From positions 53,313 through 85,312 of the forward strand of contig JAOUMY010000004.1 in the NCBI GenBank assembly GCA_029881255.1: a DNA stretch of 32,000 nucleotides, in the 5' to 3' direction. This document shows positions 5,483 to 24,396 of this stretch, piece by piece. Below the pieces are notes generated by a model. The model worked only from the letters and a program-made list of their open reading frames with translations. It had not been told where the DNA came from and searched no databases. The stretch is from Gammaproteobacteria bacterium. GTDB taxonomy: Bacteria > Pseudomonadota > Gammaproteobacteria > S012-40. Every line of letters begins with the position of its first letter. Within the stretch, counting starts at the first letter, position 1. Made by a program: the position numbers and the translations under genes.

Positions 5483-5648
5483 GTGGGGGTTCCAATTCGC
5501 GTAGGTGAGAGCGTTTTGTCTTGAGACTATCGTATGAAGCTATGCGATGGCTATAATAAATGCGCTTAGTCTGGTCGACATAATTCATATCGACCGAAAT
5601 CTCTGCCTGGGCTGTCTCTATTTGTGGGCAGCGGTTCAAACAAAAACG

Positions 5649-6572: not shown

Positions 6573-6578
6573 GGAATT

Positions 6579-7628: not shown

Positions 7629-7629
7629 G

Positions 7630-8517
7630 ATGAAAGTTTTTATTACGGGCAGTAGCTCACATCTCGCACAGGCCTTGTTGCCGCGCTTGTGCAATGACAA
7701 AGATATCGAGCGGGTATCCGGTCTGGACATCCGACCTTCACGTTTTCACCATCCAAAATTCTTTCCGGTCATCGAAGATATTCGTAGCCGCCGGCTGCAG
7801 GCGAGACTACTTGGTCACGATGCGCTTATTCATATGGCCTATGTTGTACTGCGAGGAAGAATGTCCGAACAGACCATGCGCTCAGTCAATGTTGATGGCA
7901 CTTTACAGTTGTTTTCAACGGCACGGGAAGTCGGTATATCGCGGTTAATCAACCTTTCCAGTGCGGCAGTCTACGGAAGCGGTACCATGCTGAAAGAAGA
8001 GGCCGTGTTCAACCCGCTTCCCGATTTTCTGTATGCAGCACACAAGGTAGACGTTGAACGGCGATTGAAAAAAATTGCGCCACATATTATTCAACTGCGT
8101 CCGCATATCATTCTCGGCCCCTGTGCCCAACCCTTACTAAAACAGCTGTTACGATTACCTTTTTACATAAAACTGGCTGATCCACAGCCCCGGTTGCAGG
8201 CGGTACATGAATCCGATGTTGCTAATGCCATTATGCTTGCCTTGCGGACGACAGGGCAGGGCGCTTTTAATCTTGCACCGGATGATAGCTTGAGCTTTTA
8301 CGACATGATGTATTTACGCCGTAACTTCAATATTGGCATAACGCCAGAGTTGGCGTCCACACTGGTAAATCTGGCATGGAGGCTTACGGGATGGGGCGGC
8401 GAGACTGCCTGGGTGCAGGGCGCAAACAACAGTCTGACCTGTGATAATGGGCGTGCAAAAACTGTATTGGGTTGGCAGCCTATCTATACGACAGAGCAAG
8501 TCATTAAAAGCTGTTGA
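7630..8517 (+). CDS. NAD-dependent epimerase/dehydratase (extended SDR)
   Basis: MKVFITGSSSHLAQALLPRL (variant Rossmann glycine motif), NLSSAAVYGSG, YAAHKVDVER (variant YxxxK), LRPHIILGP. Confidence 0.88.
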   Translation: MKVFITGSSSHLAQALLPRLCNDKDIERVSGLDIRPSRFHHPKFFPVIEDIRSRRLQARLLGHDALIHMAYVVLRGRMSEQTMRSVNVDGTLQLFSTAREVGISRLINLSSAAVYGSGTMLKEEAVFNPLPDFLYAAHKVDVERRLKKIAPHIIQLRPHIILGPCAQPLLKQLLRLPFYIKLADPQPRLQAVHESDVANAIMLALRTTGQGAFNLAPDDSLSFYDMMYLRRNFNIGITPELASTLVNLAWRLTGWGGETAWVQGANNSLTCDNGRAKTVLGWQPIYTTEQVIKSC

Positions 8518-9379
8518 GATCCAGGCGAATATCGTAGCGTTGAAGCTGGCGCATAGTTGGCAATACGCATTTTTCAACGAGGTGTACTCGTTTGGGATTG
8601 CAACGCGCACGCTGTCGCCACAACCGTCCATTTGACAATCCTGCGTATTCATAAATCTTTTCATGCGGCAGATAGAACGCAGTCACAAATTCATTGAAGA
8701 TTCGATTGATCAGGGCTTGGGAGATATAACGTGAAAAACGTGAGGTGCGCGCCATGGCGCGATCTAATTGTTCGCGTGCAAACGCAATATGCCGAGCTTC
8801 ATCCTTGATATGTCGTGTACACATTTGTTGAATCACCGGATTGACTGAGGAAGAAGACTCTTTGCGTATAAACCGGTTCATTTTGTCAGGTACTTCTTCA
8901 CCGATAGTAACGACTAGCCAAAATAATGCGCTGTTAAACGGCAGATGAAGTCCGACGAAATTTGCTAAACCTGGCCACTGATTTTCTATACTGGGTATGG
9001 CAAGTTTTGCCCGATGCATGAGTTCGAGAAACATCAGGCTATGTCCCGCTTCTTCGCGTATCTCATGCAAGATATAGCGGTGTTCTGCAAGCGTTCTATT
9101 TTCTTTGCGCGTGGCCTCAATAAGACGTTTGAGAAAGATTTGCTCCAGCCATACCCCTGCCTGAATGATGCTGATAAATTCGTATTGACTGAGACGTTTT
9201 CTTTGAAATTCAGGCAAAGACTCAAATTCTGCCAATCCTGATAGCGAAATTGCGTCCGCTGGTAGCCAATAGTCATGGATTGAAAGCGCATCCCATTCAA
9301 TGGTCGTGAGAGGATCGGCATATCGGCTGCTGTTATGGGACAGATGCTCGGCTAAGGCACGACGGTTGGCTACGGGCAA
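8504..9379 (-). CDS. AurF-like diiron oxygenase
   Basis: Helical ferritin-like protein with AEHRYILHEIREEAGHSLMFLELM and CTRHIKDEARHIAFAREQL (DExRH-type diiron ligands). Convergent 14-nt overlap with the upstream SDR gene. Confidence 0.72.
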   Translation of the reverse strand: MPVANRRALAEHLSHNSSRYADPLTTIEWDALSIHDYWLPADAISLSGLAEFESLPEFQRKRLSQYEFISIIQAGVWLEQIFLKRLIEATRKENRTLAEHRYILHEIREEAGHSLMFLELMHRAKLAIPSIENQWPGLANFVGLHLPFNSALFWLVVTIGEEVPDKMNRFIRKESSSSVNPVIQQMCTRHIKDEARHIAFAREQLDRAMARTSRFSRYISQALINRIFNEFVTAFYLPHEKIYEYAGLSNGRLWRQRARCNPKRVHLVEKCVLPTMRQLQRYDIRLDLNSF

Positions 9380-9697
9380 ACGAATACTCCTGTTTTACAA
9401 GGGAGAAAATGCTTAGATAATCCGCAATATAGCACTATCTTTCGCGATTCTGAAACCGCGGTATTGGCCAGTTCAGCTCACCTATAGTGCGCCGCGGCAC
9501 TTGTCAGCCGCTGAAAATATTTCCACCCCACGATGTCGCGTGTTGCGTAGCAAGTCGATACTAACTTTGTATATCGGTACGGCGTGTCTCTGACTCTTGC
9601 GCTGACTCAATATAAAGCCAAGTCTTTGCGTTTGAAATTTAAGAAAAAATCATGTCCTGTCGAAATAGCGTATATGGCTAAATAGATAAGGGAAAAT

Positions 9698-11245
9698 ATG
9701 TACAGCGGAACCCTCATTCAATTGGTGAGATTGAGTCTGTTATCAGTGTTGATGACAGCGCCTGTATATGCATGGGATAGGTTAGAACAATTACCAATAC
9801 CGTCTGCAAGGGAGTTGCTCGATGATGAGAAACCCCTTTTTAATCAATCGATAAAGCTTATGGTTGAGGGCAAAAACTCCGATGCGATACGTGCACTACA
9901 ACCGATGGCTGAGGGCGGCGTCGTTGATGCCCAGGTCGCCCTTGGAAATATTTTGGCCCATGAGTCAACTCAGCAACAGCAAAAGAGTGGTTATCGTTAT
10001 CTCTACTTCGCAGCCAATAATGGAAATTGGCATGCGCAGCTGGTGGTATCCAATGCTTTTCGTGAAGGAATTTTTACGCCGGTAGACTATGGCAAGGCGC
10101 GTCATTGGCTTAAACGGGCAGCAGTAAACGGCGATGCCGCCATAGTGTCTCAGGAAACTGAGGCCTTGAATCACACCATGATGCTGGAGTCGGTGTCGCA
10201 GCTAGAGCAGGCACAATACGATGAGGCAGAAAAACTCTTACGCGAACTGGCAGAAGAAAACGTCGTCTCCGCACAGGAAAAGTTGGCGGGTATTTATCAG
10301 AACGGCTTTCTGGGCGAGGACAAAAAAGATGTTGCGCAGAATTGGTGGCATAGAGCCGCGCAACTTGGCTCTCAGGAAGCACAATACCAATTGGCCATGT
10401 CGTATTTTTCCAGTCCTGCCATTAGTGACGAACAACGTCAAAACGCTATTCGTATGCTGGAAAAGGCCGCACAACCGGGTAAGGCTGAGGCGCAATATCA
10501 ACTCGGCATTATCTATCTGACCGGTCAAGGTACAGACAAAGATGCGGATAAGGGTATTTTCTATTACCGCATGGCCGCAGAGCAGGGAAATGTGGATGCG
10601 CAGTACTCCCTTGGTGTTCGTTACGTCCTCGGTGAGGGCGTGAGTAAAAATGAATATGAAGCCCATCGTTGGTTTAAGGCCGCCGCTGATCGCGGTATGT
10701 CGAAGGCGATGCACAATCTCGCCTTAACGTATTTATATGGAATGGGCACTGAACCGGATGCCCAGATGGCAGAACGCTGGTTCCGATCCGCGGCAAGAGA
10801 CGGCGTGGAGAAATCGACGGGATTTATTCAACAAGACACTTCAGTCCAACCAACGCTGGTTCGGGTTGCCGATGCAACACCGAGTGCAACAAAACCTAAG
10901 ACCAGCAAAAAAGCGACGGTTACGAATACTCGGAAAGTTGAAACAGTAAACGGCGCAGACTGGTTTCTCAACCTTCCGACCAAAGGATACACTTTGCAGG
11001 TACTGTCTGCCGCGAATCCCCGTAGTGTCGATGCATTTCTTTCAAAGCACAGGTTAAAGCGAAAAAACTATTTGCACTATATCGATCGATCCAATAAACG
11101 ACCTTTGCATGTTGTTCAATACGGCTATTTTGACAGTCGTGAAGAGGCGGAAAAAGCAGCGAAAGATATGTCGAAGACGCGAAAGAATTTTGAGCCATGG
11201 ATACGTGATGTAAAAAGTATCCGTAATAAAATTGTCAATATATGA
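9698..11245 (+). CDS. Secreted Sel1-repeat protein with C-terminal SPOR-like domain
   Basis: Signal peptide MYSGTLIQLVRLSLLSVLMTAPVYA. Several Sel1 repeats (AQYQLGIIYLTGQGTDKDADKGIFYYRMAAEQGNVDAQYSLGVRYVLGEGVSKNEYEAHRWFKAAADRG). C-terminal GYTLQVLSAANPRSVDAFLSKH...LHVVQYGYFDSREEAEKAAKDM. Confidence 0.88.
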   Translation: MYSGTLIQLVRLSLLSVLMTAPVYAWDRLEQLPIPSARELLDDEKPLFNQSIKLMVEGKNSDAIRALQPMAEGGVVDAQVALGNILAHESTQQQQKSGYRYLYFAANNGNWHAQLVVSNAFREGIFTPVDYGKARHWLKRAAVNGDAAIVSQETEALNHTMMLESVSQLEQAQYDEAEKLLRELAEENVVSAQEKLAGIYQNGFLGEDKKDVAQNWWHRAAQLGSQEAQYQLAMSYFSSPAISDEQRQNAIRMLEKAAQPGKAEAQYQLGIIYLTGQGTDKDADKGIFYYRMAAEQGNVDAQYSLGVRYVLGEGVSKNEYEAHRWFKAAADRGMSKAMHNLALTYLYGMGTEPDAQMAERWFRSAARDGVEKSTGFIQQDTSVQPTLVRVADATPSATKPKTSKKATVTNTRKVETVNGADWFLNLPTKGYTLQVLSAANPRSVDAFLSKHRLKRKNYLHYIDRSNKRPLHVVQYGYFDSREEAEKAAKDMSKTRKNFEPWIRDVKSIRNKIVNI

Positions 11246-12081
11246 GAGCACGGCAGGGCGGATTTATTTCATGGGACACCGTATTCGGCATACTTGCCGG
11301 ATTCGGTTTGTTCGTTTTTGCGGTATGGACATCGACAGACAATGCGTTGGTGTTTTGGAGTGTAGCGAGTTTGTCTATGGTTATCGGCGGTACATTTGCA
11401 GCTACGCTGATTTCATATCAATCCGCCTATGTCATGAAGACGATTAAGGCATTGTTTGGCATTCTAATTCCCACGCGTGTTAGTGCTGGATCTTTATTTG
11501 CCGATGTGGGACGGCTGCTTGAATGGAGTCGTGACGTACGGGAAAAAGGTCCGGCAATATTAGACGATCAGTTGGAAAATGCCGCCGCGAATAAGCTGGA
11601 TAAATTTACGGTGCACGGACTCAACATGCTTTCCAGCGGCTATAAGGGCGAGGAACTGCGGGAGTTGTTAATGGAACTGACAGAGACGATGTTTGATCGT
11701 TCTCAAGTGCAGGTGGGTGTTCTGAAAACGATGGCGCAGTTTGCGCCAGCATTCGGCATGATAGGCACCTTGGTCGGTCTGGTCATCATGCTGGATAACT
11801 TGAAGGCAGATGTAAGCCAGTTGGGGCAAGGACTTGCCTTAGCATTGATAACAACACTCTACGGTGTAATTGCCGCGAATCTCGTGTTTAAGCCAGCGGC
11901 ACTGAAAACGGATCAAAAAAACAATGTTATGCGCTTTCGAAACACGTTGTTATCTGAAGGGTTTGTGATGCTGAGTGAAAAAGTGGATCCACTCAAAATG
12001 CAGGACAAGTTGAACAGCTTTCTAGATCCCGCAGTTCACTTTGACTTGCTTGCAACAAACGAAAAGGGCAAGAAAAGGTAA
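11242..12081 (+). CDS. MotA/PomA-like proton/sodium channel subunit
   Basis: Four predicted TMs; FILGFGLFVF-type TM1 (TVFGILAGFGLFVFAVW), GGTFAATLISY, cytoplasmic SRDVREKGPAILDDQLENA, APAFGMIGTLVGLVIMLDNL, LGQGLALALITTLYGVIAANLVFKPAALK. ATG overlaps the preceding stop (ATGA). Confidence 0.93.
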   Translation: MRARQGGFISWDTVFGILAGFGLFVFAVWTSTDNALVFWSVASLSMVIGGTFAATLISYQSAYVMKTIKALFGILIPTRVSAGSLFADVGRLLEWSRDVREKGPAILDDQLENAAANKLDKFTVHGLNMLSSGYKGEELRELLMELTETMFDRSQVQVGVLKTMAQFAPAFGMIGTLVGLVIMLDNLKADVSQLGQGLALALITTLYGVIAANLVFKPAALKTDQKNNVMRFRNTLLSEGFVMLSEKVDPLKMQDKLNSFLDPAVHFDLLATNEKGKKR

Positions 12082-12087
12082 AACGCC

Positions 12088-12768
12088 ATGGCTACCAGAT
12101 ACCGAAAACGGTCTGCGGTGTCGGACGAAGATAGCGAAGACTGGTTGCTGACATACTCGGATGCGGTGACATTGTTGATGACGTTTTTAGTTTTGATGTT
12201 GTCCGTATCGACTATCGATCAGGCGAAATATGAGCAGGTTGTAGAGTCGATTAAAGAGAAAGGCCTGGATCAGGACAAGCAGTATGTATCGCCGTTCGAG
12301 ACGCTACAGGAAAAATTGAATGATGTTGCCAAAGAACATGATATGGAAAAAAACATGACCGTGACGCGCCAACCAAAAGGGCTGACGATAGAGTTGGCAT
12401 CGTCCAGTTTGTATACCGTGGGTTCTGCAGACATACAGGATGCGGCACTGGCGGCCTTGAGTGATGTGGCGTCGTCGATAAAAGGTTTTGACTATGACAA
12501 TTACCAGGTGGAGATTGAGGGGCATACGGACAATGTGGCAATCAATACCGAGCGCTATCCCTCGAATTGGGAGTTGTCTGTGCACCGGGCAACGAACGTC
12601 GTGCGCCATTTTCTGCAGAGTGGCATCGATAACGATCGTATCAAGGTCGCAGGTTATGCCGATACGCGTCCAAAAGTACCGAACCAGGACGTAGCTGGAA
12701 ATGCAATCCCTGGTAATCAGGCTATCAACCGACGCGTGGTGATTCACGTGGTGAGAAAAGAGGATTAG
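12088..12768 (+). CDS. MotB-like stator subunit with OmpA-type peptidoglycan-binding domain
   Basis: WLLTYSDAVTLLMTFLVLMLSVS with ion-binding-type Asp25 (codon 12160-12162). OmpA-C motif VEIEGHTDNVAINTERYPSNWELSVHRATNVVRHFL...NRRVVIHV. Confidence 0.94.
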   Translation: MATRYRKRSAVSDEDSEDWLLTYSDAVTLLMTFLVLMLSVSTIDQAKYEQVVESIKEKGLDQDKQYVSPFETLQEKLNDVAKEHDMEKNMTVTRQPKGLTIELASSSLYTVGSADIQDAALAALSDVASSIKGFDYDNYQVEIEGHTDNVAINTERYPSNWELSVHRATNVVRHFLQSGIDNDRIKVAGYADTRPKVPNQDVAGNAIPGNQAINRRVVIHVVRKED

Positions 12769-12777
12769 GGGCAGGTA

Positions 12778-13902
12778 ATGGAAATGACTTCACTTGTCAG
12801 AAATGGTAGCAAACGGAAGGCGCTGTTCTTGCTCATGTCTTTTTTCGTGATTTCACCAGACGCAGTGATGGCTGCTGATCCGTCAGCTACACCACAAGTC
12901 GAACGCTTCAAGTTGAGTTATCGCGATGCAGAGATGATTCAGTATATAGATGCTCAGGAAAAATTCGTTAAGTTGCTTGATTCGCCGGGTGTGTTAACAG
13001 AGGAAGTATTAAAGGATATAGATTTTGAAGTAAGAAATATTGCCTTTTATCGCTTCAACGACAGACAGTACAAAAAGTTTCCACGCATATTCTACGACTC
13101 GATTGAACAAAGACTAATGGACCGTTTTATTCGGGCCAAACGTTTCGCAGTACATGAATGTTTTGAATGTAAAACGACACGCGTACTGTTAAAGGAAAAG
13201 CAGTTTTCCGTTTTGCGCCAACTTGATTCGAACGAGGCACTCAACGAAGTGGGGAAGAAAATTGGCGTCGACAGCTTTGTTTTGTGGGAAGCCTATATGT
13301 ATAAGGGTGACCCTATGCTTAATATACGCGTCGTCTCGGCAGCAGATGGTCAGGTCCGATGGTCGAAACAATACCTGAGTGAACCTGCCTATGAATTTGA
13401 GTGGGAGATGTATAGCTCACTGTGGGGAATAAAGGCGATAAGGGCAAGAACTTCGGGTAGTGGTTCGGATATCAGCGTATCGCCCATTCTCGACATAGGT
13501 CTCAGAACCCTGTCGCGCTCAACTATTTCGGACAAAATTTATTATGGCTACGGCGTCGAAGCCTTCTTCAATACGATGTATCGCACCCAGGTGGATCTTT
13601 ACGGCTTGAGTCTGAATGCCCGTGTGGGCGTCGAAATGGATAGTATGCTTGGGCTGGAAATGAAGAACTATGGCAATTGGCTGATGTATCTTTCCGTTGG
13701 TCAGGCGTTCTTGAAAAACAATCCTGTGTTATTGATTCGGGGTGGTCTGGAGATACGTATAAACAGGCGTAATTTTATTGAGATTGGTGGCGTGTTCATT
13801 CCTACGACGACATTTAGCAACGGATCAGCTTTGGCAAATTACAGTGATGTGTCTTCGCTTAGTAACCTTGGTTACGACGTCACTATCGGTTTTCGTTTTT
13901 AG
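12778..13902 (+). CDS. Predicted exported protein: N-terminal periplasmic domain plus C-terminal outer-membrane beta-barrel-like region, function unknown
   Basis: Hydrophobic signal ALFLLMSFFVISPDAVMAAD. Domain with LNEVGKKIGVDSFVLWEAY...LNIRVVSAADGQVRWSKQYL. C-terminal alternating strands ending in Phe (NLGYDVTIGFRF). Confidence 0.6.
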   Translation: MEMTSLVRNGSKRKALFLLMSFFVISPDAVMAADPSATPQVERFKLSYRDAEMIQYIDAQEKFVKLLDSPGVLTEEVLKDIDFEVRNIAFYRFNDRQYKKFPRIFYDSIEQRLMDRFIRAKRFAVHECFECKTTRVLLKEKQFSVLRQLDSNEALNEVGKKIGVDSFVLWEAYMYKGDPMLNIRVVSAADGQVRWSKQYLSEPAYEFEWEMYSSLWGIKAIRARTSGSGSDISVSPILDIGLRTLSRSTISDKIYYGYGVEAFFNTMYRTQVDLYGLSLNARVGVEMDSMLGLEMKNYGNWLMYLSVGQAFLKNNPVLLIRGGLEIRINRRNFIEIGGVFIPTTTFSNGSALANYSDVSSLSNLGYDVTIGFRF

Positions 13903-13912
13903 GTGAATTGAC

Positions 13913-14602
13913 ATGGGTAAATATTCTGGTCGATTGAAATTAGTTTACATCTCACTGGTGGTAGTGGCGATCTCCGCTTGTATGCCGCGTATTCCTACCA
14001 ATCAGACTCAGACTCGCGACGTAGCTCTGGAAGACGTGCAGAACGAAATGCAGCAAAAAGGGCAACGAGTCAAGATGATTAATGAGCCCGGGATGATTCA
14101 TATTCAACGCCAGACAGAAGAGTATTCGATCAGCATGGTCCTCGATGCCAGTGACGAAAATATCTATTTCGTGATGGATTTGCCGCAGGAAGAGGAAAAG
14201 ATTCAGGAACCCGTACCGGTTGAAGAGCCACCGCTTCCAGAACCGGAGCAAGTTATCCCTGAGCCACCGCCAGAGGAAGAGAACGCAGTCGAAGAAGAAA
14301 AGCCTGCGCCGGTAGAAGAGGCTGCAACCGTAGAGCCGGAAGTCGACGATACTCGCGCGAGCAAATACATTTTGTATGCGCAAACCTATTTTCTGGAAAA
14401 GAAATATGCACGCGCATTAGAAGAGGTTAACCGTGCCGTAGGCTACTCGCCAGGATCTGCGGTAGCGCATTCATTGCGCGGTTCTATATTTTACAAGCTG
14501 GGCGAAAAAGAACAGGCTCGCAACGCTTGGACACGGGCATTGGAACTCGATGAAAGTCTCGACAATGTTAAGAAAATGTTAGGTCAGTTGGATCAAAAAT
14601 AG
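13913..14602 (+). CDS. TPR lipoprotein with Pro/Glu-rich linker
   Basis: Lipobox VVVAISAC; Pro/Glu-rich EPVPVEEPPLPEPEQVIPEPPPEEENAVEEEKPAPVEE; TPR-like ASKYILYAQTYFLEKKYARALEEVNRAVGYSPGSAVAHSLRGSIFYKLGEKEQARNAWTRALELD. Confidence 0.82.
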   Translation: MGKYSGRLKLVYISLVVVAISACMPRIPTNQTQTRDVALEDVQNEMQQKGQRVKMINEPGMIHIQRQTEEYSISMVLDASDENIYFVMDLPQEEEKIQEPVPVEEPPLPEPEQVIPEPPPEEENAVEEEKPAPVEEAATVEPEVDDTRASKYILYAQTYFLEKKYARALEEVNRAVGYSPGSAVAHSLRGSIFYKLGEKEQARNAWTRALELDESLDNVKKMLGQLDQK

Positions 14603-14626
14603 TTGCTTGTACCGGGAATCTGCATA

Positions 14627-16735
14627 ATGTTTGAATCGGGTCATAAACGCAAATTGATAATCAGAGCACTAGCGCTGGTGTTGTGCTATCTCATTGCGTT
14701 CCCGGTCGGCCTTGCAGAGGAGATCGAGCGACGTAGTAAGGTCAGTGATCTGGCACGCAGTACATTCGAGAAGGATCTGGAGCAGCGACTTTCCCGCGAT
14801 ATCAAAGCCTATCTCAATCACGAATTCTTTATCGTACAAATAAATGCGCAACTGGAAAATATCGAGAAGTGGGATATCAGCGAAGTTGTGGTGCCGGTTG
14901 AGCCGCCTCCTCAAGCTCCACCACAGGCTGCACCTCAAGCTCCACCACCGGTACCCGCGATAGATGAAAAGAAGAAAACGATATTATCGCAGATGGAGCT
15001 CGATACCAAAGACGGAATCAATAGTAGTATTCTGGAAAAAAGTATCGGTGTTGATACGGCTTTGCCCGGTGTACCTTTGTCCGATGAATTTATCGAGGAA
15101 GAACGAAAACGTTTGGTTGAGTTGGAGCAACTCAAACAGGAACTGAAGCAAAAACTGGAAGAGCCGCCGAAAGCGGAACCACCAGCGCCACCTCCACCAG
15201 TGCCTCAGGTGCAAACAAAAAAGGAAAAGGTAGAAAAACTACTCAGTAAACAGGAAGCGATCCGTAAACTGAATGCAAAGGTGATGCTGGATGAACACGT
15301 CTCTCCGGAGCAGGAAGTGTTTATTCGCAATCTGGTGATAGAGAAGGCCGATCTCTCTTTTTTGCGTGGAGACGAACTACGTATTTTGCGTTCCAAGTTT
15401 CCTGCGGCATCAGTACTGGATGAGCCAGTAGAAGAAGAGCCCAAGCCAGAAGAAGTACCGGAGGAGGCGGCTGAAACTCCGGCGGAAGAACCTCCCACAT
15501 GGTGGGAGGAAAATTGGCAATACGTGCTCGCGGCCGGTGCCATTCTAGCGCTGCTATTGCTGTGGCTTTTTGTCAGACGTAGAGAAAAGGCGCCTGTGAA
15601 TACCGAACCCATGGTGGTGGAGTCTGAGGCCTCGCGCAAGCTTGAAGAATTAATCCGAAAAATGCACGAGAAAGTCGATACGGTAAACGAAAACCGTCTT
15701 GGGGCGATTAAGGAAGAAATTGTTAGTCTCGCCGTAACAGATCAGGAAATGGTCAGCGAGCAAATCAAGGAATGGCTTGGTAGTGCCTCTGAGGATGACA
15801 AAAACAAGTCTGGCTTACTTTATCAAATGTTGGGTGAAGGCTTATATCGCGGCTTGGCGCATCCCGTGTTGACACCGGAAAAGCAAATTGCCGTCGTCGG
15901 TAAGATACTCGAAATCGAAGAGATGATGTCTCCCGATGAGAAACTGGCACTGGCGGAAAATGTGTTTCAGGCCATGATGCAACGCCGCTATCAGCAACAA
16001 CACGATTTGCGCGACGAGAATAAACCGTTCGCCTTTCTTGAAAAACTCAATGACGATCAGATTCTATATCTGTTGAAAGAAGAGCCGCTCAAAGTCAAGG
16101 CTTTGGTAATGTCGCAGTTGTCCTCTAATCGAGGTGCGTCCTTACTGAAACGTTTCAACATTGCCAGTCGTAGTAAGATCGCGATGGAGATCAGCCAGTT
16201 CGCCAAGCTACCGGTATCCGCGTTTCGGGATATCGCTAACAGGCTCGCAAAAAAGGCGGTTCACGTTCCGAGTTACGAAAATCTGGAAGTCGAGGGCATC
16301 GATTTGCTGACAGATATGTTGGACCATATGAATTCTGCGGAAGAAACGGCCCTGCTCAAATCCCTGCAGCGAGAAAATCCAGATCTCTACTATGCAATAC
16401 GCCAGGTATATGTCAGCTTCGACGATATCGTACAGATACCTACGCTTGGACTTAAAAATGTTATTCGCGAACTTGATCGTGAAGTGCTTGCCTTGGCCTT
16501 GTATGACGCAGACGAAAGCTACCGTGGCGTAATCTTCGGCACTATGCTGGAAAGGCCTCGGGCAATGCTGCAGTCGTCAATTAAGGCTTTGGGCGTACCG
16601 GAGCCAGATGCGGTGAACGATGCGAAACGCAAAGTGTCACGACAGGCTCGGGCGATGTTAAAGGCGGGTGTATTTGAGATGCCGAGTGGAAAGCCCAATA
16701 AAAAGACGACGCCAAACGAGAAGAAAAGCGCCTAA
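14627..16735 (+). CDS. Membrane-anchored FliF(C-terminal)-FliG-like fusion protein
   Basis: ATG at 14627 (the track uses TTG 14603). Residue numbers from the track start: signal/TM1 LIIRALALVLCYLIAFPVGLA; RBM3-like FEKDLEQRLSRDIKAYLNHEFFIVQINAQLE (aa 55-85) and AIRKLNAKVMLDEHVSPEQEVFIRNLVIEKADLSFLRGDELRILRSKFP (aa 219-267); TM2 WWEENWQYVLAAGAILALLLLWLFVRRR (aa 300-327); FliF-tail-like KEEIVSLAVTDQEMVSEQIKEWLG; FliG-like FAFLEKLNDDQILYLLKEEPLKVKALVMSQLSSNRGASLLKRF and LLTDMLDHMNSAEETALLKSLQRENPDLYYAIRQVYVSFDDIVQIPTLGLKNVIRELDREVLALALYDADESYRGVIFGTMLERPRAML. Confidence 0.85.
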   Translation: MFESGHKRKLIIRALALVLCYLIAFPVGLAEEIERRSKVSDLARSTFEKDLEQRLSRDIKAYLNHEFFIVQINAQLENIEKWDISEVVVPVEPPPQAPPQAAPQAPPPVPAIDEKKKTILSQMELDTKDGINSSILEKSIGVDTALPGVPLSDEFIEEERKRLVELEQLKQELKQKLEEPPKAEPPAPPPPVPQVQTKKEKVEKLLSKQEAIRKLNAKVMLDEHVSPEQEVFIRNLVIEKADLSFLRGDELRILRSKFPAASVLDEPVEEEPKPEEVPEEAAETPAEEPPTWWEENWQYVLAAGAILALLLLWLFVRRREKAPVNTEPMVVESEASRKLEELIRKMHEKVDTVNENRLGAIKEEIVSLAVTDQEMVSEQIKEWLGSASEDDKNKSGLLYQMLGEGLYRGLAHPVLTPEKQIAVVGKILEIEEMMSPDEKLALAENVFQAMMQRRYQQQHDLRDENKPFAFLEKLNDDQILYLLKEEPLKVKALVMSQLSSNRGASLLKRFNIASRSKIAMEISQFAKLPVSAFRDIANRLAKKAVHVPSYENLEVEGIDLLTDMLDHMNSAEETALLKSLQRENPDLYYAIRQVYVSFDDIVQIPTLGLKNVIRELDREVLALALYDADESYRGVIFGTMLERPRAMLQSSIKALGVPEPDAVNDAKRKVSRQARAMLKAGVFEMPSGKPNKKTTPNEKKSA
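14909..14947 (+). repeat. Short in-frame direct repeat CCTCAAGCTCCACCA, 24-nt period, encoding Pro/Ala/Gln-rich linker
   Basis: CCTCAAGCTCCACCA at 14909-14923 and again at 14933-14947. Confidence 0.85.
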
Positions 16736-16790: not shown

Positions 16791-17357
16791 TCAGGCAATA
16801 TATCGCCGCGACACTTCAGGCCAGTCATATTCGCGTAACTCTTTTTCCAAAGCCTGCGCCTGGTGGCGTTCGCGCAAACTACGCATTAAACAGGTGCGTG
16901 ATTGAAACATCATCATGGCTTCCAGCGGATTAAATTTCATTCCCTCTATAAATAGCAACATGATAGCATCGTGTATGCCAGGAAATTGTTCGAATCGTTT
17001 CAAGGTCTCTTCATGGACTTCATCCCACTCCTCATTTGAGTCGTGACACCAACCGAGTGTATGAAAGATCGGTGGAAGTAGCAGCAGTAGGTTCGGGAAT
17101 CGAATTTCCGCAGGCATAAAAACCACACGACGGATAGAGAAGGAAATGGCATAACTCAGTGGGAGATACAATTGAGCATTGTCTTCTAACAGAGTAAGAG
17201 TGTTCGCCTGCAACAGGTCTTCAACCAGGTCAGCCAGATCTTCCGCACTTTGGGCATGTGAAAGCGCTACGAAGGTTTGATTGACAAAGGCGAGGGGGTT
17301 TTGTGTGTATTCGTATCGTGGCTTTGTATCAAGAGTGTTTTCATCAACGGTAATCAT
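16791..17357 (-). CDS. Conserved-looking hypothetical protein, 188 aa
   Basis: ORF with normal composition, convergent to the motor operon; no family recognised. Confidence 0.6.
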   Translation of the reverse strand: MITVDENTLDTKPRYEYTQNPLAFVNQTFVALSHAQSAEDLADLVEDLLQANTLTLLEDNAQLYLPLSYAISFSIRRVVFMPAEIRFPNLLLLLPPIFHTLGWCHDSNEEWDEVHEETLKRFEQFPGIHDAIMLLFIEGMKFNPLEAMMMFQSRTCLMRSLRERHQAQALEKELREYDWPEVSRRYIA

Positions 17358-17528
17358 GACATCCTCGCAAAGTTTGCAGCTACGTTAGTAGTGTAATAGC
17401 AGCACTTATGCCATTTCTGAGGATGGTGATATGTCTAGTGATTACAATGGGATAAAGAATGTAAGCAGCACCTCGCCAGCGAGAGAGGAGGAGGGAGAAG
17501 GCAAGGTGCTGCCGCTTGCTAGGTGAAA

Positions 17529-17939
17529 CTAACCCATCTGAGGTGACAGCCTTTCCAAGGCCTCAGAGGCGTAGATACGTACTTTCTGACTCGTGTCACT
17601 CAATGCCTGGATCAAGGCCGGTCGGCAAAGCTGGGCAATAGGTGCGATATTACGCAGCGCGCGCGCGGCGGCGATACGTAACGCAGTTTCACCGTCTCTA
17701 AGGGTATGCACCAAGGCCGGTAGGGCTGGCGATGCCTGTTCACCTAACATACCAATAATGTCAAAGCATATGCTTCGCATGAGCGGATCGTTGTCGTTTA
17801 AGGCTTTGTCGGCTAGTTCGCAAACACTATTGTTATCCAACGGGCTGATCTGAGCCAGATATCTTGCAGTTTCCTGCTCTCGTTGCCTGAAATCGGTGTC
17901 TTCCATTGTTGTCATTTCATGTACCTCGTTTGTGCACAT
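17529..17939 (-). CDS. HEAT-repeat protein
   Basis: LMRSICFDIIGMLGEQASPALPALVHTLRDGETALRIAAARALRNIAPIAQLCRPALIQALSDTSQKVRIYASEALERL. Confidence 0.8.
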   Translation of the reverse strand: MCTNEVHEMTTMEDTDFRQREQETARYLAQISPLDNNSVCELADKALNDNDPLMRSICFDIIGMLGEQASPALPALVHTLRDGETALRIAAARALRNIAPIAQLCRPALIQALSDTSQKVRIYASEALERLSPQMG

Positions 17940-18129
17940 ATCCCGATAGAGCTCATCTATAGTTCAAGCATAGAGCCAGGTTTGTTGGAAAGCTGTGAGT
18001 TTCTTCACAAGGAACACGAATTTTTTTGCAATAAGTTCCCAAAAGACTCAGTACTGCCTCAGACTCTAGTTTGGGTTGGGTGTCGCAATGTGGTTTAATG
18101 TTGTCACAACAAACGACTGGGAATTACGG

Positions 18130-18870
18130 ATGGCAGGCGGGCGCAGGAAATTTGCTCTATTATTTGCCTTGTTTGGCAGCTTTCGTGATCTCGCCCCCAT
18201 CATTTTAGTTGTCGCCTTTTTTCAGTTGCTGGTGTTGCAGCAACCCATTCCTAATATGACCGATATCATCATCGGCGCGTTACTCGTGGCAGTTGGTCTC
18301 ACGCTATTTATTCAGGGCCTTGAGCAGGGTTTGTTTCCCATCGGAGAAAGTATGGCCTACGCCTTTGCGCGTAAGGGCAGTCTCTTTTGGTTACTGGCAT
18401 TCGCTTTCGCTCTGGGATTTGGCACTACCGTAGCGGAACCTGCGTTAATCGCCGTGGCTAAAGAAGCTGCTGCAGTCGCAGCCGGCGGCGGTGTCATTGA
18501 AAATACAGACGAGGCGAAGAGTGATTATGCCTATGGACTTCGGCTTACAGTGGCCTTGTCAGTCGGCGTGGCGATTGTGCTCGGGGTGTGGCGCATACTT
18601 AAGGGCTGGCCTATCCACTACATGATAGTCGTCGGATACATAGGTGTCGTCATCATGACAGCATTTGCGCCTAAAGAGATCATTGGTATTGCTTATGATT
18701 CTGGCGGTGTTACCACTTCGACTATTACCGTACCTTTAGTGACAGCACTCGGTGTTGGCCTGGCCTCCAGCATTAAGGGGCGTAATCCCATGATCGATGG
18801 ATTTGGGCTTATCGCCTTTGCTTCCTTATTACCCATGATATTTGTCATGGGGTACGGGATGTTGTTCTGA
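18130..18870 (+). CDS. DUF1538 membrane protein (first paralog)
   Basis: Hydrophobic; [29 protein letters not shown] and [49 protein letters not shown]. The track start is 18076; ATG 18130 is an alternative. Confidence 0.82.
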
Positions 18871-19664
18871 TGGAACTGATATTACAAATACTATCGACTT
18901 TACTCGCCACTATCGGTGATGTGTTACCGATCGCAGCCATCATCTTTGGCTTTCAATTTCTGGTTATACGCAAACCCGTTCCTCAACTAAAACGCGTCCT
19001 GGTGGGATTTGTCTATGTCCTGCTTGGCTTAGCGCTTTTCCTTGTTGGATTGGAAAAGGCCTTGTTCCCACTCGGCAAGTTAATGGCGCAACAATTGACA
19101 GATCCTGAATTTATTTCAAGAGGAATGGACGTAGTTACAACAGCGTTGTCCTGGCAGGACTACAAATGGGTATACATTTTTGCCTTTGCCATCGGATTTT
19201 CCACCACGATTGCCGAGCCATCTTTGATTGCGGTAGCCATTAAGGCACAGGAAGTGTCCGGTGGAACCATAAGTGTGTGGGGTTTGCGCATAGCCGTAGG
19301 TCTGGGAGTGGCCATAGGGATTGCCCTGGGTACCTTCCGTATCGTAACGGGTACACCTTTGCACTTTTATATTATTTCCGGCTATATCGTGGTCGTCATC
19401 CAGACCTTTTACGCACCGCGCATGATAATCGCCTTGGCATACGACTCTGGCGGGGTTACAACGTCGACTGTGACGGTACCATTAGTAGCTGCGCTGGGAT
19501 TGGGTTTGGCCAATACCGTGCCGGGGCGCAGCCCGCTGCTGGACGGATTTGGTCTAATTGCCTTTGCCAGTTTATTCCCCATGATGACAGTCATGGGCTA
19601 CGCGCAGTTTTCAGACTGGCGTTCCAAACAAAACAGGAAACGATATACGGAAGGAGGGAAGTAA
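18870..19664 (+). CDS. DUF1538 membrane protein (second paralog)
   Basis: Same signatures as the preceding gene: [82 protein letters not shown]. 1-nt overlap with the first paralog. Confidence 0.85.
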   Translation: MELILQILSTLLATIGDVLPIAAIIFGFQFLVIRKPVPQLKRVLVGFVYVLLGLALFLVGLEKALFPLGKLMAQQLTDPEFISRGMDVVTTALSWQDYKWVYIFAFAIGFSTTIAEPSLIAVAIKAQEVSGGTISVWGLRIAVGLGVAIGIALGTFRIVTGTPLHFYIISGYIVVVIQTFYAPRMIIALAYDSGGVTTSTVTVPLVAALGLGLANTVPGRSPLLDGFGLIAFASLFPMMTVMGYAQFSDWRSKQNRKRYTEGGK

Positions 19665-20014
19665 TGCATTTTAAATTAATTATTGCACTGATCGAGGACG
19701 ACAAAACTGAGGCCGTGCTCGAAGCTGCCCGCAAGCAGGGCGCGACTGGGGCCACGATTATCAATCACACGCGTGGCGAGGGCTTGGTTCCAACCAAGAC
19801 ATTCCTGGGCTTGTCATTGGAAACTCAGCGGGACATGTTGATGTTTCTGGTCGAGGAACATTTGTGCCGAAAAATTCTTGAGACGATTGCGGAAGTCGCA
19901 AGATTCGATGTGGATTCGGGGGCGGGAATCGCCTTTCAGATAAATGTTGAAGATGCAGTGGGGGTGTCTCATCAGGTCAGTCAATTGTCAAAATTGGTGG
20001 AGGATAATCTATGA
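19664..20014 (+). CDS. P-II-like nitrogen-regulatory family protein
   Basis: MHFKLIIALIEDDKTEAVLEAARKQGATGATIINHTRGEGLVPTKTFLGLSLETQRDMLMFLVEEHLCRKILETIAEVARFD. ATG overlaps the preceding stop by 1 nt; the track ORF 19277..20014 is an upstream over-extension. Confidence 0.82.
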   Translation: MHFKLIIALIEDDKTEAVLEAARKQGATGATIINHTRGEGLVPTKTFLGLSLETQRDMLMFLVEEHLCRKILETIAEVARFDVDSGAGIAFQINVEDAVGVSHQVSQLSKLVEDNL

Positions 20015-20412
20015 GTGAGAAAGCGCCGATCAAAGTCAGAGATGTGATGAAGGCAGAGTTCGATGTAGTCGATGGTATGGCGACGATTGATCAGGCAGTG
20101 GAACGTATGCAGCATGTCGATACTAAATGTTTAATTGTCGACAAACGACACGAAAACGACGAGTACGGCATTCTTCTGTTGTCAGATATTGCGCGTAAGG
20201 TATTGGCCAGAGATCTTGCTATGGATCGAGTCAATGTCTACGAAATCATGGCCAAGCCAGTCTTACATGTGGACCCGGAAATGGATATACGTTACTGCGC
20301 GCGTTTTCTCGATCGCTTTGATTTGTCGCGTGCGCCAGTTGTGGAAAACCGCAAAGTCATTGGCATCGTAAGTTATACCGATTTGGTATTGAAAGGATTG
20401 TGTCGGAAATAG
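20011..20412 (+). CDS. CBS-domain pair protein
   Basis: IKVRDVMKAEFDVVDGMATIDQAVERMQHVDTKCLIV...YEIMAKPVLHVDPEMDIRYCARFLDRFDLSRAPVVENRKVIGIVSYTDLVLKGL. 4-nt overlap with the P-II-like gene. Confidence 0.9.
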   Translation: MSEKAPIKVRDVMKAEFDVVDGMATIDQAVERMQHVDTKCLIVDKRHENDEYGILLLSDIARKVLARDLAMDRVNVYEIMAKPVLHVDPEMDIRYCARFLDRFDLSRAPVVENRKVIGIVSYTDLVLKGLCRK

Positions 20413-20419
20413 GTGTTGA

Positions 20420-20857
20420 TCAGGCGGTGCTGGCGCGAGGAGCCTGCAATCCGGCCCGTTTGTCGTTGTAGTATTGTTGTATGGCGTTTAAATGTTGAGG
20501 GTCCACTTTTACAATTCGCAATACGATGTAGTGTTGATTATTACGTATATGCTTGTGAGTCACCGTAGCCAGGACACAAATCTTCTTGATTGCATTTCCC
20601 AGATGCAAAGAAAATTGCACCTTATAAGGTGTTCCGGTTGTCAACGGAACCTGGTGGAGTATGCCAATTCTTTTCATCGAAATATTTGTCAAATCGCTGC
20701 GAAAATGTGTACCGTCTTTTGAATAAAGATGTGCCGTGCGATTTACAGGTACCGGTAATTGTTGTTGTGTTGCGCCAGACATATTCCAGGTTTTCCACAA
20801 AAAATGTATGTCTCTATTTCGGTATACGCCACCAAAATAAGAGTCCAAATGTATCAA
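20420..20857 (-). CDS. PilZ-like domain protein (start uncertain, possibly 20782)
   Basis: HFRSDLTNISMKRIGILHQVPLTTGTPYKVQFSLHLG...ICVLATVTHKHIRNNQHYIVLRIVKVDPQHLNAIQQYYNDK follows a PilZ pattern, but the c-di-GMP signature looks degraded. Confidence 0.45.
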   Translation of the reverse strand: MIHLDSYFGGVYRNRDIHFLWKTWNMSGATQQQLPVPVNRTAHLYSKDGTHFRSDLTNISMKRIGILHQVPLTTGTPYKVQFSLHLGNAIKKICVLATVTHKHIRNNQHYIVLRIVKVDPQHLNAIQQYYNDKRAGLQAPRASTA

Positions 20858-21960: not shown

Positions 21961-24396
21961 ATGCCACAGGCTTCCGATGGTGCGATTACGCATTTACTGG
22001 AGCGCTTACGTAAACAGTCCGCAAATTGTATTACTGCTGAATTAATACAACCCGCCAATCGTGGCGAATATGCGGACTTTCCAGAGTACCTCGATCCGAG
22101 TCTTGTACGGGCGCTAGAGTCGCGTGGTCTTACGCGCCTGTACAGTCATCAACGCCAGGCACTGGAATATATAAACCAGGGTCTACACACCGTGCTCGTA
22201 ACGCCAACGGCCTCTGGTAAGACGCTTTGTTATAATCTGCCCGTACTCAATAGTGTATTGCGTGATCGCGCGAGGGCACTCTATCTTTTTCCCACCAAGG
22301 CATTGTCTCAGGATCAGGTAGCCGAAATTCTGGAGTTGAACGATTCCGGCGGCTTAGGCGTGCGCGCCTATACTTTCGATGGAGACACGCCAGGGGATGC
22401 GCGCAAGGCGGTACGCGTGCATGGCGACATCGTTGTTTCCAATCCCGATATGTTGCACCAGGGCATATTGCCGCATCACACCAAATGGGCGCAGTTTTTC
22501 GAAACACTGCGTTATATCGTTATCGACGAAATGCATATTTATCGCGGCGTTTTCGGCTCGCATATGGCCAATGTATTGCGCCGTCTGCAACGCATCTGTC
22601 GTTTTTATGGAAGCTCTCCACAATTCATTTTATGTTCCGCCACTATCGCCAATCCTGAGGAATTGGCCACGCGCTTGATTGGACACGAAGTAGTGACAAT
22701 TACCAGGAGTGGGGCGCCACGAGGGGAACGCCGGGTATTGTTGTGGAATCCGCCGGTAATCAATCCCGATCTTGGGATTCGCGCTTCGGCACGATCGCAG
22801 TCTACCCGAATAGCCAAAGAGGCTACGGGGATGGGTTTGAAGAATATTATCTTTGCCCAATCCAGACTAATGGTTGAGGTACTCACCAAATATTTAAAAG
22901 ACAAATTCGACAAAGATCCTCGTCATCGTGCGCGCGTACATGCCTATCGCGGTGGTTATTTGCCTAGCGAACGCAGGGATGCAGAGCAACGCATGCGACG
23001 TGGCGAAGTGGACTGTGTTGTGGCGACCTCGGCGCTGGAACTGGGTGTGGATATCGGTGCTCTGGATGTCTGTATTTTGAACGGATACCCCGGCACTATC
23101 GCAGCGACCTGGCAGCGTATCGGCCGGGCAGGTAGACGCAATCGTCCTTCGTTGGGGGTTCTGGTGGCCAGTAGTCAGGCACTGGATCAATATATTGTTC
23201 GCAATCCGGAGTTTTTTCTCGATGCCTCACCGGAGCATGCGCAGATCGATCCCGATCAGTTGCTGATTTTACTCGATCATGTCCGTTGCGCCGCGTTCGA
23301 ATTGCCATTTCGTGAAGGTGAGCGCTTTTGTGATCGAGGGGTGGAGGATTTTCTGGACTATCTGGAGGACGAGGGGATTTTGCATCACGAGGGTGATCAA
23401 TGGCACTGGATGACCGATGCCTACCCTGCCAATAGTGTAAGTTTGCGTTCCGTGGCGGAAGGCAACTTCGTCGTCATAGACACCACTGGAGGCAAGCAGG
23501 AGATCATCGCCGAAGTGGATTATTCCGCTGCACCACTGACGCTGTATGAAGGTGCAATCTATATGATACAAGCACGCCCGTGGCAGGTTGAACATCTGGA
23601 CTGGGAAGGACGCAAAGCCTTCGTAACGCAAACCCGCGCCGACTACTATACCGATGCCATCGACTACACCAAACTCAAGACGCTGGATCAGTTTGAGTCT
23701 GCATCACTGGGTGAATGTAAAGTCGCGATGGGAGAGGTTCATCTGGTGAGGCGTGTCGCGGGATATAAGAAGATACGCTATTACACTCACGATAATATTG
23801 GATTCGGCAAGGTCAATCTTCCCGATCAGGAAATGCATACCACCGCGGTTTGGTGGCAGGCAAAGCCTGAGAGTCTCGACAATGCCTTCCAAAACCGTTG
23901 GCAGGCCCTGGATGGTTTTCTTGGCGCTGCCTATGCCATGCATCACATTGCCAGTCTGTTGTTGATGTCGCAGCCTCAGGATCTGGGGCGCGCAGTGGGT
24001 AATAGCGATGCTGAGTGGTTGGCAACTGTTGGCGCAAACGGGCGTGGACAAATGAAATCCTTTGCTGGAACCGAAATCAGCGACTCATCGAACGTCGCGG
24101 AGTTTACGCCAACGCTGTTTCTCTACGACAACTTTCCCGGTGGTATAGGTCTGAGCGCGCCGTTGTTTGATAAACGTGAGTTGATTCTGCAGCGTGCGTC
24201 TTCGCTGATCGAAGATTGCGATTGTACTTCTGGATGCCCGGCCTGTATCGGTCCTATCCTCGCCAGTGAAGAGGCGCGAGGCTATTCTCCAAAGACATCT
24301 GCGCGCATGGTGTTGGCGCTGTTTCTTGGACAAGCGCAGGAAGGTTTGTCGATGATGGAAGAAAAGCGCAGAGAAAGGTATGCGCTCAATGGCTAA
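21961..24396 (+). CDS. DEAD/DEAH-box helicase with C-terminal DUF1998-type Cys motif, MrfA/YprA-like
   Basis: VTPTASGKTLCYNLPVL (Walker A region), VIDEMHIYRG (DEVH variant), ALELGVDIGALD, QRIGRAGR, C-terminal CDCTSGCPACIG. Confidence 0.92.
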   Translation: MPQASDGAITHLLERLRKQSANCITAELIQPANRGEYADFPEYLDPSLVRALESRGLTRLYSHQRQALEYINQGLHTVLVTPTASGKTLCYNLPVLNSVLRDRARALYLFPTKALSQDQVAEILELNDSGGLGVRAYTFDGDTPGDARKAVRVHGDIVVSNPDMLHQGILPHHTKWAQFFETLRYIVIDEMHIYRGVFGSHMANVLRRLQRICRFYGSSPQFILCSATIANPEELATRLIGHEVVTITRSGAPRGERRVLLWNPPVINPDLGIRASARSQSTRIAKEATGMGLKNIIFAQSRLMVEVLTKYLKDKFDKDPRHRARVHAYRGGYLPSERRDAEQRMRRGEVDCVVATSALELGVDIGALDVCILNGYPGTIAATWQRIGRAGRRNRPSLGVLVASSQALDQYIVRNPEFFLDASPEHAQIDPDQLLILLDHVRCAAFELPFREGERFCDRGVEDFLDYLEDEGILHHEGDQWHWMTDAYPANSVSLRSVAEGNFVVIDTTGGKQEIIAEVDYSAAPLTLYEGAIYMIQARPWQVEHLDWEGRKAFVTQTRADYYTDAIDYTKLKTLDQFESASLGECKVAMGEVHLVRRVAGYKKIRYYTHDNIGFGKVNLPDQEMHTTAVWWQAKPESLDNAFQNRWQALDGFLGAAYAMHHIASLLLMSQPQDLGRAVGNSDAEWLATVGANGRGQMKSFAGTEISDSSNVAEFTPTLFLYDNFPGGIGLSAPLFDKRELILQRASSLIEDCDCTSGCPACIGPILASEEARGYSPKTSARMVLALFLGQAQEGLSMMEEKRRERYALNG

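Follow-up and report, generated by a model that had tools for sequence, protein, structure and literature searches.

A natural FliF-FliG fusion protein without RBM1/RBM2, encoded together with its own MotAB-type stator in a conserved bacterial gene module

Here we describe a gene found in a 32,000-nt stretch of DNA (the window) of contig JAOUMY010000004.1, which belongs to an uncultured Gammaproteobacteria metagenome-assembled genome (MAG). The gene lies on the plus strand at 14627..16735 and encodes a protein of 702 amino acids from an ATG start; an alternative TTG start is present at 14603. The ATG form is used in the public annotation, where the protein (locus tag OEZ43_09805, on a 366-kb contig; 100% identical to P0001 of our protein set) is named 'hypothetical protein', and all residue numbers of the fusion refer to this form. 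A preliminary description of the window had interpreted the gene as a natural fusion of the C-terminal half of FliF to FliG. The open reading frame (ORF) ending at 16735 is real, and the three peptides quoted in that description are found in it at residues 211-259, 291-317 and 361-383. The domain order is a signal peptide or first transmembrane segment (TM1), the third ring-building motif (RBM3) of FliF, the second transmembrane segment (TM2), the C-terminal helices of FliF and the N (probable), M and C domains of FliG. RBM1 and RBM2 are missing. The fusion does not stand alone, as it forms the rotor-like part of a conserved module of several genes that includes its own MotAB stator.

The architecture was resolved with two family profiles, one built from 16 full-length relatives (A1) and the other from their N-terminal 455 residues (A2), both run against PDB sequences, and with an AlphaFold2 (AF2) model. 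All of the features of the fusion are on the plus strand. The N-terminal hydrophobic segment (residues 1-28; 14627..14710) is either TM1 or a cleavable signal peptide, with a hydropathy peak at 8-28 and an AF2 helix at 4-28. RBM3 begins with the part designated RBM3a (residues 31-90; 14717..14896), which consists of a helix (41-63) and a long strand (68-90) predicted with a local distance difference test score (pLDDT) of 87-93. Its helix aligns to the start of RBM3 in FliF (233-253 in Salmonella, 230-251 onward in E. coli), a match that is sub-threshold when taken alone. The following Pro-rich insert (residues 91-196; 14897..15214; 21 Pro in 106 residues; low pLDDT) contains a conserved ELETEDGI block, an LPGxP motif (146-150) and a helix (153-176). 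Among 74 diverse family members, L146, P147 and G148 of this motif are nearly invariant. The LPGxP motif has a suggestive likeness to the FliF collar-tip motif 'PGGVPGALSN', in a region where the alignment is insecure. RBM3b (residues 197-259; 15215..15403) comprises a long strand (197-222), a helix (227-241) and a strand (250-256). In the profile this part (positions 163-254) aligns to Salmonella FliF 336-440, including the RGD...F motif, and the corresponding region of E. coli FliF is 331-431. The RGD...FP motif is common to FliF, and R247, G248, D249 and F258 are nearly invariant in the same 74 members. Since the insert at 91-196 sits at the position of the FliF beta-collar and disordered loop, the split of RBM3 is the ordinary FliF topology. 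The preliminary description had pictured RBM3 as interrupted by about 130 residues of Pro-rich linker and coiled-coil-like sequence; the split and its Pro-rich nature hold, whereas the insert is 106 residues long and is not an oddity.

The membrane and cytoplasmic parts follow the same order as in FliF and FliG. TM2 (residues 291-318; 15497..15580) has its hydropathy peak at 299-319 and aligns to FliF TM2 (447-471), so that two hydrophobic segments (8-28 and 299-319) flank the periplasmic region, as in FliF. The helices at residues 334-385 (15626..15781) are homologous to the C-terminal, FliG-binding peptide of FliF. They align to Salmonella FliF up to its last residue (560), to E. coli FliF 495-552, again its end, and to the C-terminus of unfused short FliF proteins; profile positions 290-391 cover Salmonella FliF 447-560, from TM2 through the FliG-binding helix. 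The claims of an RBM3 pattern, a second FliF transmembrane segment and a FliG-binding segment are borne out by these alignments. The statement that only the RBM3-TM2 portion of FliF was kept is correct for RBM3, TM2 and the C-terminal helices and needs an amendment, as the N-terminal signal or TM1 segment is kept as well. The FliG part consists of a FliG_N-equivalent helical domain (residues 391-476; 15797..16054), assigned through relatives and Foldseek, FliG_M (ARM_M; residues 477-549; 16055..16273) and FliG_C with the torque helix (residues 579-684; 16361..16678).

Sequence profiles, Pfam models in family members and the predicted fold together support the identification of the protein as FliF, from RBM3 through TM2 to the C-terminal peptide, joined in frame to FliG without RBM1/RBM2. 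Pfam FliG_M (PF14841) and FliG_C (PF01706) match the fusion with 40.1 bits (E=4e-10; gathering score 25) and 74.1 bits (E=1e-20; gathering score 23.3), respectively. The NCBIfam FliG equivalog TIGR00207 scores 81.4 bits, far under its cutoff of 226.7. FliG_N has no Pfam match in the window fusion itself, but it is found above cutoff in two relatives, P0038 (37.6 bits; cutoff 25) and P0215, and the region in P0038 maps to window residues 391-480. The idea that about 50 N-terminal residues of FliG_N are missing was dropped, because the Pfam model matched over positions 4-92 of 104 in a relative. The FliG part is probably complete (N, M and C) and not restricted to M and C. For FliF, YscJ_FliF_C (PF08345) is sub-threshold in the window fusion alone (13.5 bits) and above its cutoff of 23.8 in the relative P0254 (27.0 bits); the model also matches P0085, P0091 and P0119, and the matches of relatives map to RBM3b. 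In the PDB search, the family profile matched FliG at E~1e-30, and A1 and A2 both matched Salmonella FliF (A2, E=2.5e-6). The FliF and FliG sequences of E. coli gave the same colinear mapping onto the fusion. As had been claimed, RBM1 and RBM2 are absent: PF01514, the model of RBM1-RBM2 (the SctJ-homology region), did not match the fusion even at E<=10, and the RBM3 helix starts only about 30 residues past the N-terminal hydrophobic segment.

The predicted structure agrees with these assignments. Modelling of the monomer had been proposed as a check on the preliminary description, and the AF2 model (pLDDT 73) contains both the RBM fold and the FliG domains. It shows an RBM of the order alpha-beta-beta-alpha-beta with a very long hairpin, then TM2 and an all-helical cytoplasmic part. 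Searched against the PDB with Foldseek, the model matched full-length FliG (3hjl; E=3.7e-11 over 313 columns) and many FliF RBM3/collar chains (6sd1, 6scn, 7cg7 and Vibrio 8z4d; E about 3e-5). The FliG_C region reached a TMt of 0.9 to FliG_C structures, among them the MotAB-bound chain 8ucs_H. SpoIIIAG was a marginal match (E=0.32).

The fusion gene is the last of six closely spaced genes of the plus strand, with gaps of -4 to +24 nt. The second and third genes encode the stator. The MotA-like subunit (11242..12081; Pfam MotA_ExbB E=2e-22) is of the flagellar, PomA/MotP-like type: its best NCBIfam matches are MotP, PomA and MotA (E 1e-37 to 1e-30), compared with 6e-3 for TolQ. The MotB-like subunit (12088..12768) has a plug and an OmpA-like peptidoglycan-binding domain (Pfam MotB_plug E=2e-16, OmpA E=3e-16). 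Against NCBIfam, MotA and MotB score highest with the flagellar stators MotP, PomA, MotD and MotS, above TolQ/ExbB. The other three genes encode exported partners. The first gene of the operon (9698..11245) specifies a protein with four Sel1 repeats and a C-terminal, peptidoglycan-binding SPOR domain (Pfam Sel1 E=1e-38, SPOR E=3e-11; signal peptide ...PVYA/WD), orthologs of which occur in loci L001-L003 and L016. It also matches NCBIfam MotX (E=2e-14; 53.6 bits against a cutoff of 330), which is a lead only. A small lipoprotein (13913..14602; lipobox AISA/C) carries a Pro/Glu-rich linker and C-terminal tetratricopeptide repeats (TPR; Pfam TPR_2 E=1.5e-9), and its homologs adjoin in 17 loci.

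The remaining partner is an exported protein of 374 amino acids (unk374; 12778..13902), with homologs in 16 loci. It has an N-terminal alpha/beta domain and a C-terminal half with an outer-membrane beta-barrel-like tail ending in ...GFRF. The family has a signal peptide, an invariant terminal Phe and the C-terminal consensus YDLTLGxRF; a terminal Phe in such a context is a signature of outer-membrane beta-barrels. From these features the tail is probably a barrel. The AF2 single-sequence model (pLDDT 31.5) is uninformative on this point, and the family profile matched no PDB sequence. No Pfam family matched the 374-aa protein of the window. Member-wise scans of its family gave FlgO in 8 of 16 (best E=1.8e-3), FlgT_M in 6 of 16 and CsgG/LpoB in a few, all under the cutoffs and to be read as leads only. 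In a scan of the window for promoters and terminators, the counts were not above those of shuffled controls; with that limit, the best promoter-like site lies at 9394-9421, upstream of the first operon gene.

The functional residues of the stator and of FliG are kept in part. Every locus has the MotB Asp that corresponds to D32 of E. coli, and MotA P173 and P222 are likewise invariant in the module loci. MotA E98 is Glu or Asp in every locus (Asp in the window). FliG R281 is the classical partner of MotA E98, and its equivalent is Arg or Lys in 70 of 74 diverse fusions (Arg in the window). MotA R90 is Arg in the gammaproteobacterial loci, the window included, and Gln in Fibrobacterota-type loci. 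At the positions of FliG D288/D289, acidic residues are confined to some clades, and the window has Ser-Ser. The charge pairs covary partly: Oceanospirillales keep MotA R90 together with acidic FliG 288/289, while Fibrobacterota-type members lost both (Gln; Ser/Gly). The EHPQR motif that binds FliM (E125, H126, P127, Q128 and R160) is largely lost. Only E125 is kept (70 of 74), and the other positions vary across the family; in the window, H126/P127/Q128 correspond to P/L/K (...KEEPLK...) and R160 to E.

The module is conserved well beyond the window. When its genes are abbreviated as A (MotA), B (MotB), X (unk374), T (the TPR protein) and R (the fusion), the same five genes are found in 17 of 19 fused loci of Gammaproteobacteria and Fibrobacterota. 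They occur in at least four orders, including A-B-X-T-R, X-T-R-A-B and R-X-T-A-B, and the distant members L015, L017, L018 and L019 show the five genes in further orders. The 374-aa and TPR proteins are detectably homologous across distant loci, and the genes flanking the module differ from locus to locus. A search of GTDB at one genome per species found 13 loci. Three are Ectothiorhodospiraceae-like MAGs with 57-60% identity and the gene order of the window; the other ten are Oceanospirillales (Oleispira, Thalassolituus, Saccharospirillaceae, Bacterioplanoides) with about 30% identity and the order X-T-R-A-B. An exhaustive HMMER search with the N-terminal profile returned 280 cluster representatives at E<=1e-3 and 110 at E<=1e-10. 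Within the best 150 of the 280, 106 carry the RBM3-like part together with FliG M/C, with a median length of 614 aa. A large branch of the family comes from Fibrobacterota MAGs, in which the proteins are annotated as 'FliG C-terminal domain-containing', 'FliG-like' or 'hypothetical'. Carriers of the module include Bacterioplanoides OZ244785, a Fibrobacterota MAG with the locus tag IPK50_10545 and GCA_046861865.1. A second homolog search with the 74-sequence alignment recovered the same 20 close proteins and none further.

Some variation was seen around this pattern. In L016, a TPR protein, a 422-aa protein and a Sel1 protein lie near the fusion. L014 (8001-11709, on a 2.1-Mb contig) encodes a 771-aa family member followed by a KAP-family P-loop NTPase, with no MotAB, TPR protein or 374-aa partner nearby; the rotor protein may be put to a different use in this locus. 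Envelope-biogenesis genes are located close to the module in L019 (7682-8722; MreB) and L015 (1-5338; TamB and Omp85), an inconsistent association that may be a coincidence. Three proteins of about 600 aa (P0018, P0019 and P0020) combine TPR repeats with FliG N/M/C, two of them with a weak RBM3b-like match, and represent another non-canonical FliG architecture.

Unfused relatives suggest how the fusion arose. FliG is missing from some representatives, which are 386-482 aa long and consist of the RBM3, TM2 and C-terminal parts. Their loci L022-L025 read MotA-MotB-short FliF-FliG, and in the unfused pair the stop codon of fliF directly abuts the start codon of fliG ('GAG TAA ATG'). When short FliF and FliG are concatenated, residues 356-685 of the window fusion can be aligned through the junction with no gap (27% identity; E=1.6e-38), a colinearity that also supports the reading of the protein as a fusion. 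The gap-free alignment over the junction and the adjacent stop and start codons therefore indicate, at the level of sequence comparison, that the fusion arose by loss of a stop codon in an already truncated fliF-fliG pair that travelled with its own motAB. The neighbours of the unfused clusters are non-flagellar, and one of them encodes a sorting tail (Por_Secre_tail) of the type IX secretion system (T9SS). A further set of RBM3-only FliF variants of 480-560 aa (P0119, P0131, P0136, P0143 and P0153) has a long coiled-coil-like segment between RBM3 and TM2. One such coiled-coil variant, in L025 (846-3245), is preceded by MotB and followed by a separate FliG.

The loci stand apart from flagellar gene clusters. 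Other than the genes of the module itself, no flagellar gene was found within +/-7-10 kb in any family locus (about 20 loci) or in the 32-kb window, and no export-gate, rod, hook, FliM or FliN gene was found in the examined flanks of any module locus. As a control, the search that recovered the family also yielded a canonical FliF, P0164, which has both PF01514 and PF08345; its gene belongs to a complete flagellar operon (L026). The carriers are not all devoid of flagella. Thalassolituus pacificus 59MF3M-4 (L010), a cultured marine bacterium, has an ordinary single polar flagellum (PMC9807766).

We consider it probable that the fusion is the rotor subunit of a self-contained, flagellum-independent and non-switching motor of flagellar ancestry driven by MotAB. 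RBM3 would oligomerise into an S-ring-like ring in the inner membrane, and this ring would place one FliG per subunit (1:1) beneath it. In Salmonella, RBM3 on its own assembles into rings of the native stoichiometry, which it also sets (PMC8786727). Stator units of the MotA5B2 type, anchored to peptidoglycan via MotB, would conduct ions and push the torque helix of FliG_C, so that the ring turns, with the contact made through the retained pair of FliG R281 and MotA E98. With the FliM-binding site lost and no fliM or fliN genes in the module, the motor is not expected to change its direction. Likewise, no rod, hook or filament is expected, given that the fusion lacks RBM1/RBM2 and the module has no export-gate genes. 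Most likely, the exported partners would form a periplasmic and outer-membrane scaffold round the ring or for the stators, or take up its movement via the conserved LPGxP insert. A broader proposal, to which we commit ourselves only tentatively, is that the whole module is a free-standing ion-driven rotary machine, in which a ring of RBM3 and FliG is spun by its own MotAB without an export apparatus, axial structure or switch, and is coupled to the outer-membrane partners for non-flagellar work. Such a machine may have come about by drastic reduction of the flagellar motor, or it may be an analogue, surviving today, of the 'proto-motor' postulated to precede the type III secretion system in scenarios of flagellar origin.

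Several points weigh against an autonomous motor. Ring formation, rotation and stator engagement by the fusion are what we infer from its domains and partners. The MotA, MotB and FliG parts all score under the NCBIfam equivalog cutoffs. Of the two classical charge pairs, a single one is found throughout, with MotA R90 replaced by Gln in the Fibrobacterota type. In the clade of the window, Ser-Ser at FliG D288/D289 is unexplained, as MotA R90 is kept. Two fused loci (L014 and L016) have no adjacent MotAB. Finally, the absence of flagellar genes holds for the flanks of the loci, and co-assembly with flagellar components encoded elsewhere in the genome is possible.

Another reading is a ring that does not rotate. 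RBM3 and FliG might form a static ring or scaffold that docks MotAB units, whose rotation or ion flow would then be used otherwise, for instance as a trans-envelope tether or force transducer to the outer-membrane partner by a logic like that of Tol-Pal or TonB, or the ring might be a SpoIIIAG-like channel. Partial conservation of the classical charge pairs is in keeping with this idea, as is the nature of the partners, which are exported and associated with peptidoglycan or the outer membrane (SPOR, OmpA-like domain, lipoprotein, barrel-like tail). RBM rings do serve as static rings in SpoIIIAG and in SctJ/SctD (PMC4768692). However, the stator has a plug and belongs to the flagellar type, not to the ExbBD/TolQR type. 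In addition, the torque-helix fold of FliG_C and R281 are kept, and the structural match to SpoIIIAG, as given above, is marginal. It is unlikely, in our opinion, that the ring is static.

It is also conceivable that the fusion joins the canonical flagellar motor of the host as an accessory or alternative rotor subunit, for example mixed into the MS/C-ring or in a special ring that serves a second set of stators. Flagella are present in at least one carrier, all domains of the fusion are of flagellar origin, and the partners show a weak resemblance to FlgO/FlgT and MotX of the Vibrio H-ring and T-ring. On the other hand, the module never adjoins flagellar genes and brings its own complete stator, and the fusion has neither RBM1/RBM2 nor the FliM-binding motif, which would be needed for integration with the export gate and the C-ring. 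The unfused versions stand beside a T9SS sorting-tail gene, which may mark a usually non-flagellated lineage. These features make co-assembly with the flagellar motor quite improbable. It is scarcely credible that the module is a functionless remnant, in decay, of a second flagellar system that was lost: incomplete flagellar gene sets are common (PMC12199754), but the ORFs are intact, LPGxP, RGD, FliG R281 and MotB D32 are deeply conserved over two phyla and 280 cluster representatives, and the five-gene module persists through rearrangement.

The fusion and its partners can be compared with several known systems. Canonical FliF and FliG of Salmonella and E. coli (PDB 6sd1, 6scn, 3hjl and 8umx) share with the fusion an RBM3 whose long hairpin lies at the position of the collar, the RGD...F motif, TM2, the FliG-binding helices, the FliG M and C domains and, as assigned through relatives, probably the N domain, and torque-helix R281, as well as the gene order fliF-then-fliG. 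In contrast, the fusion is a single chain without RBM1/RBM2, its EHPQR site is lost and D288/D289 are not conserved; its gene lies outside a flagellar operon, with no export-gate, rod, hook, FliM or FliN genes nearby. The closest precedent is the FliF-FliG fusion of Chlamydiaceae (Bergeron 2016, PMC4768692), also a natural single chain with a shortened periplasmic part outside a complete flagellar system. The chlamydial protein is about 330 aa long, contains RBM2 and an unassigned RBM-like segment, no SpoIIIAG-like RBM3 and FliG_M only, and is thought to work with the injectisome (PMC4768692). The present family shows the reverse, with RBM3 retained, a FliG that is probably complete, and a MotAB of its own. 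Engineered end-to-end covalent FliF-FliG proteins are also known, as Salmonella deletion-fusion mutants and Vibrio FliFG (PDB 8z4d/8z4g; PMC11481574). They assemble rings, and a 1:1 fusion is thus compatible with assembly (PMC11481574), but they are laboratory constructs with full-length FliF (RBM1-3) that work inside a complete flagellum.

The envelope partners and the stator recall other machines. The scaffold of the Vibrio polar motor (PomAB, the MotX/MotY T-ring and the FlgO/FlgP/FlgT H-ring) resembles the module in its PomA/MotP-like stator, the MotX-resembling Sel1-repeat protein and the weak FlgO/FlgT_M signals, all of which are under family cutoffs. The module differs in having no MotY or FlgP homologs and no L/P rings, and its FlgO/FlgT-like domain is fused to a barrel-like tail. 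Other 5:2 ion-driven motors (GldLM-T9SS, ExbBD-TonB, TolQR-TolA and Zorya ZorAB; PMC12505986) are likewise inner-membrane, ion-driven and encoded together with periplasmic or outer-membrane partners. However, they belong to generic, non-flagellar stator clades and have no FliG/FliF rotor, whereas the module combines a flagellar-type stator with a FliG torque ring. The MotA/TolQ/ExbB clusters of Fibrobacter succinogenes (PMC6851124) were considered as a precedent for the family and set aside, as they are ordinary TonB systems.

We found no published description of the fusion family or of the module in the literature searched; Cavalier-Smith 2006 has no bearing on it. Our results describe a widespread and minimal rotor-stator module of flagellar ancestry in Fibrobacterota and Gammaproteobacteria, with the unfused form in other lineages. 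According to a survey of 2025, rotor proteins occur without filaments in 11% of the non-motile species, and the survey raised the question of a different role for such proteins (PMC12199754). The module would bear on this question if it proves to be an autonomous motor. It would then be the smallest natural rotor-stator set derived from the flagellum, with one rotor polypeptide, MotA and MotB, and would make it testable what the minimal torque-generating unit is. It would also test whether the core of MS-ring, FliG and stator can work when no type III export apparatus is present, which is a central step in evolutionary models of the flagellum. As the cultured and flagellated T. pacificus carries the module, genetics and electron cryo-tomography are feasible, and a one-chain rotor is an attractive minimal system for structural and single-molecule work.

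Several other genes of the window were noted. Directly upstream of the operon lies an unrelated cluster of oxidative enzymes (3516-9379), which encodes a 2-hydroxyacid dehydrogenase, an HODM-like protein, a luciferase-like monooxygenase, an NAD-epimerase and an AurF-like N-oxygenase. Two genes that converge on the fusion gene from the minus strand (16791-17939) encode a 188-aa protein without a family match and a 136-aa HEAT/ARM-repeat protein, neither of which is conserved beside the module elsewhere. A small PilZ-domain ORF (20420-20857, minus strand; 22.7 bits, at the Pfam cutoff) is located about 3.7 kb downstream of the operon and is not conserved beside the module in related loci; PilZ proteins brake flagellar motors via MotA/FliG in other bacteria. 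On the plus strand at 18076-20412, two consecutive DUF1538 membrane proteins are followed by an ORF with a P-II-like domain and a CBS-pair protein, possibly a regulated transporter cassette. Further downstream (21961-25633, plus strand), an 811-aa helicase with DEAD, Helicase_C and WHD_HRQ1 domains and an MrfA Zn-binding domain is followed by an overlapping gene for a 417-aa exonuclease of the RNase_H_2 type with TPR, an arrangement that looks like a DNA-repair pair of the MrfA/MrfB type.

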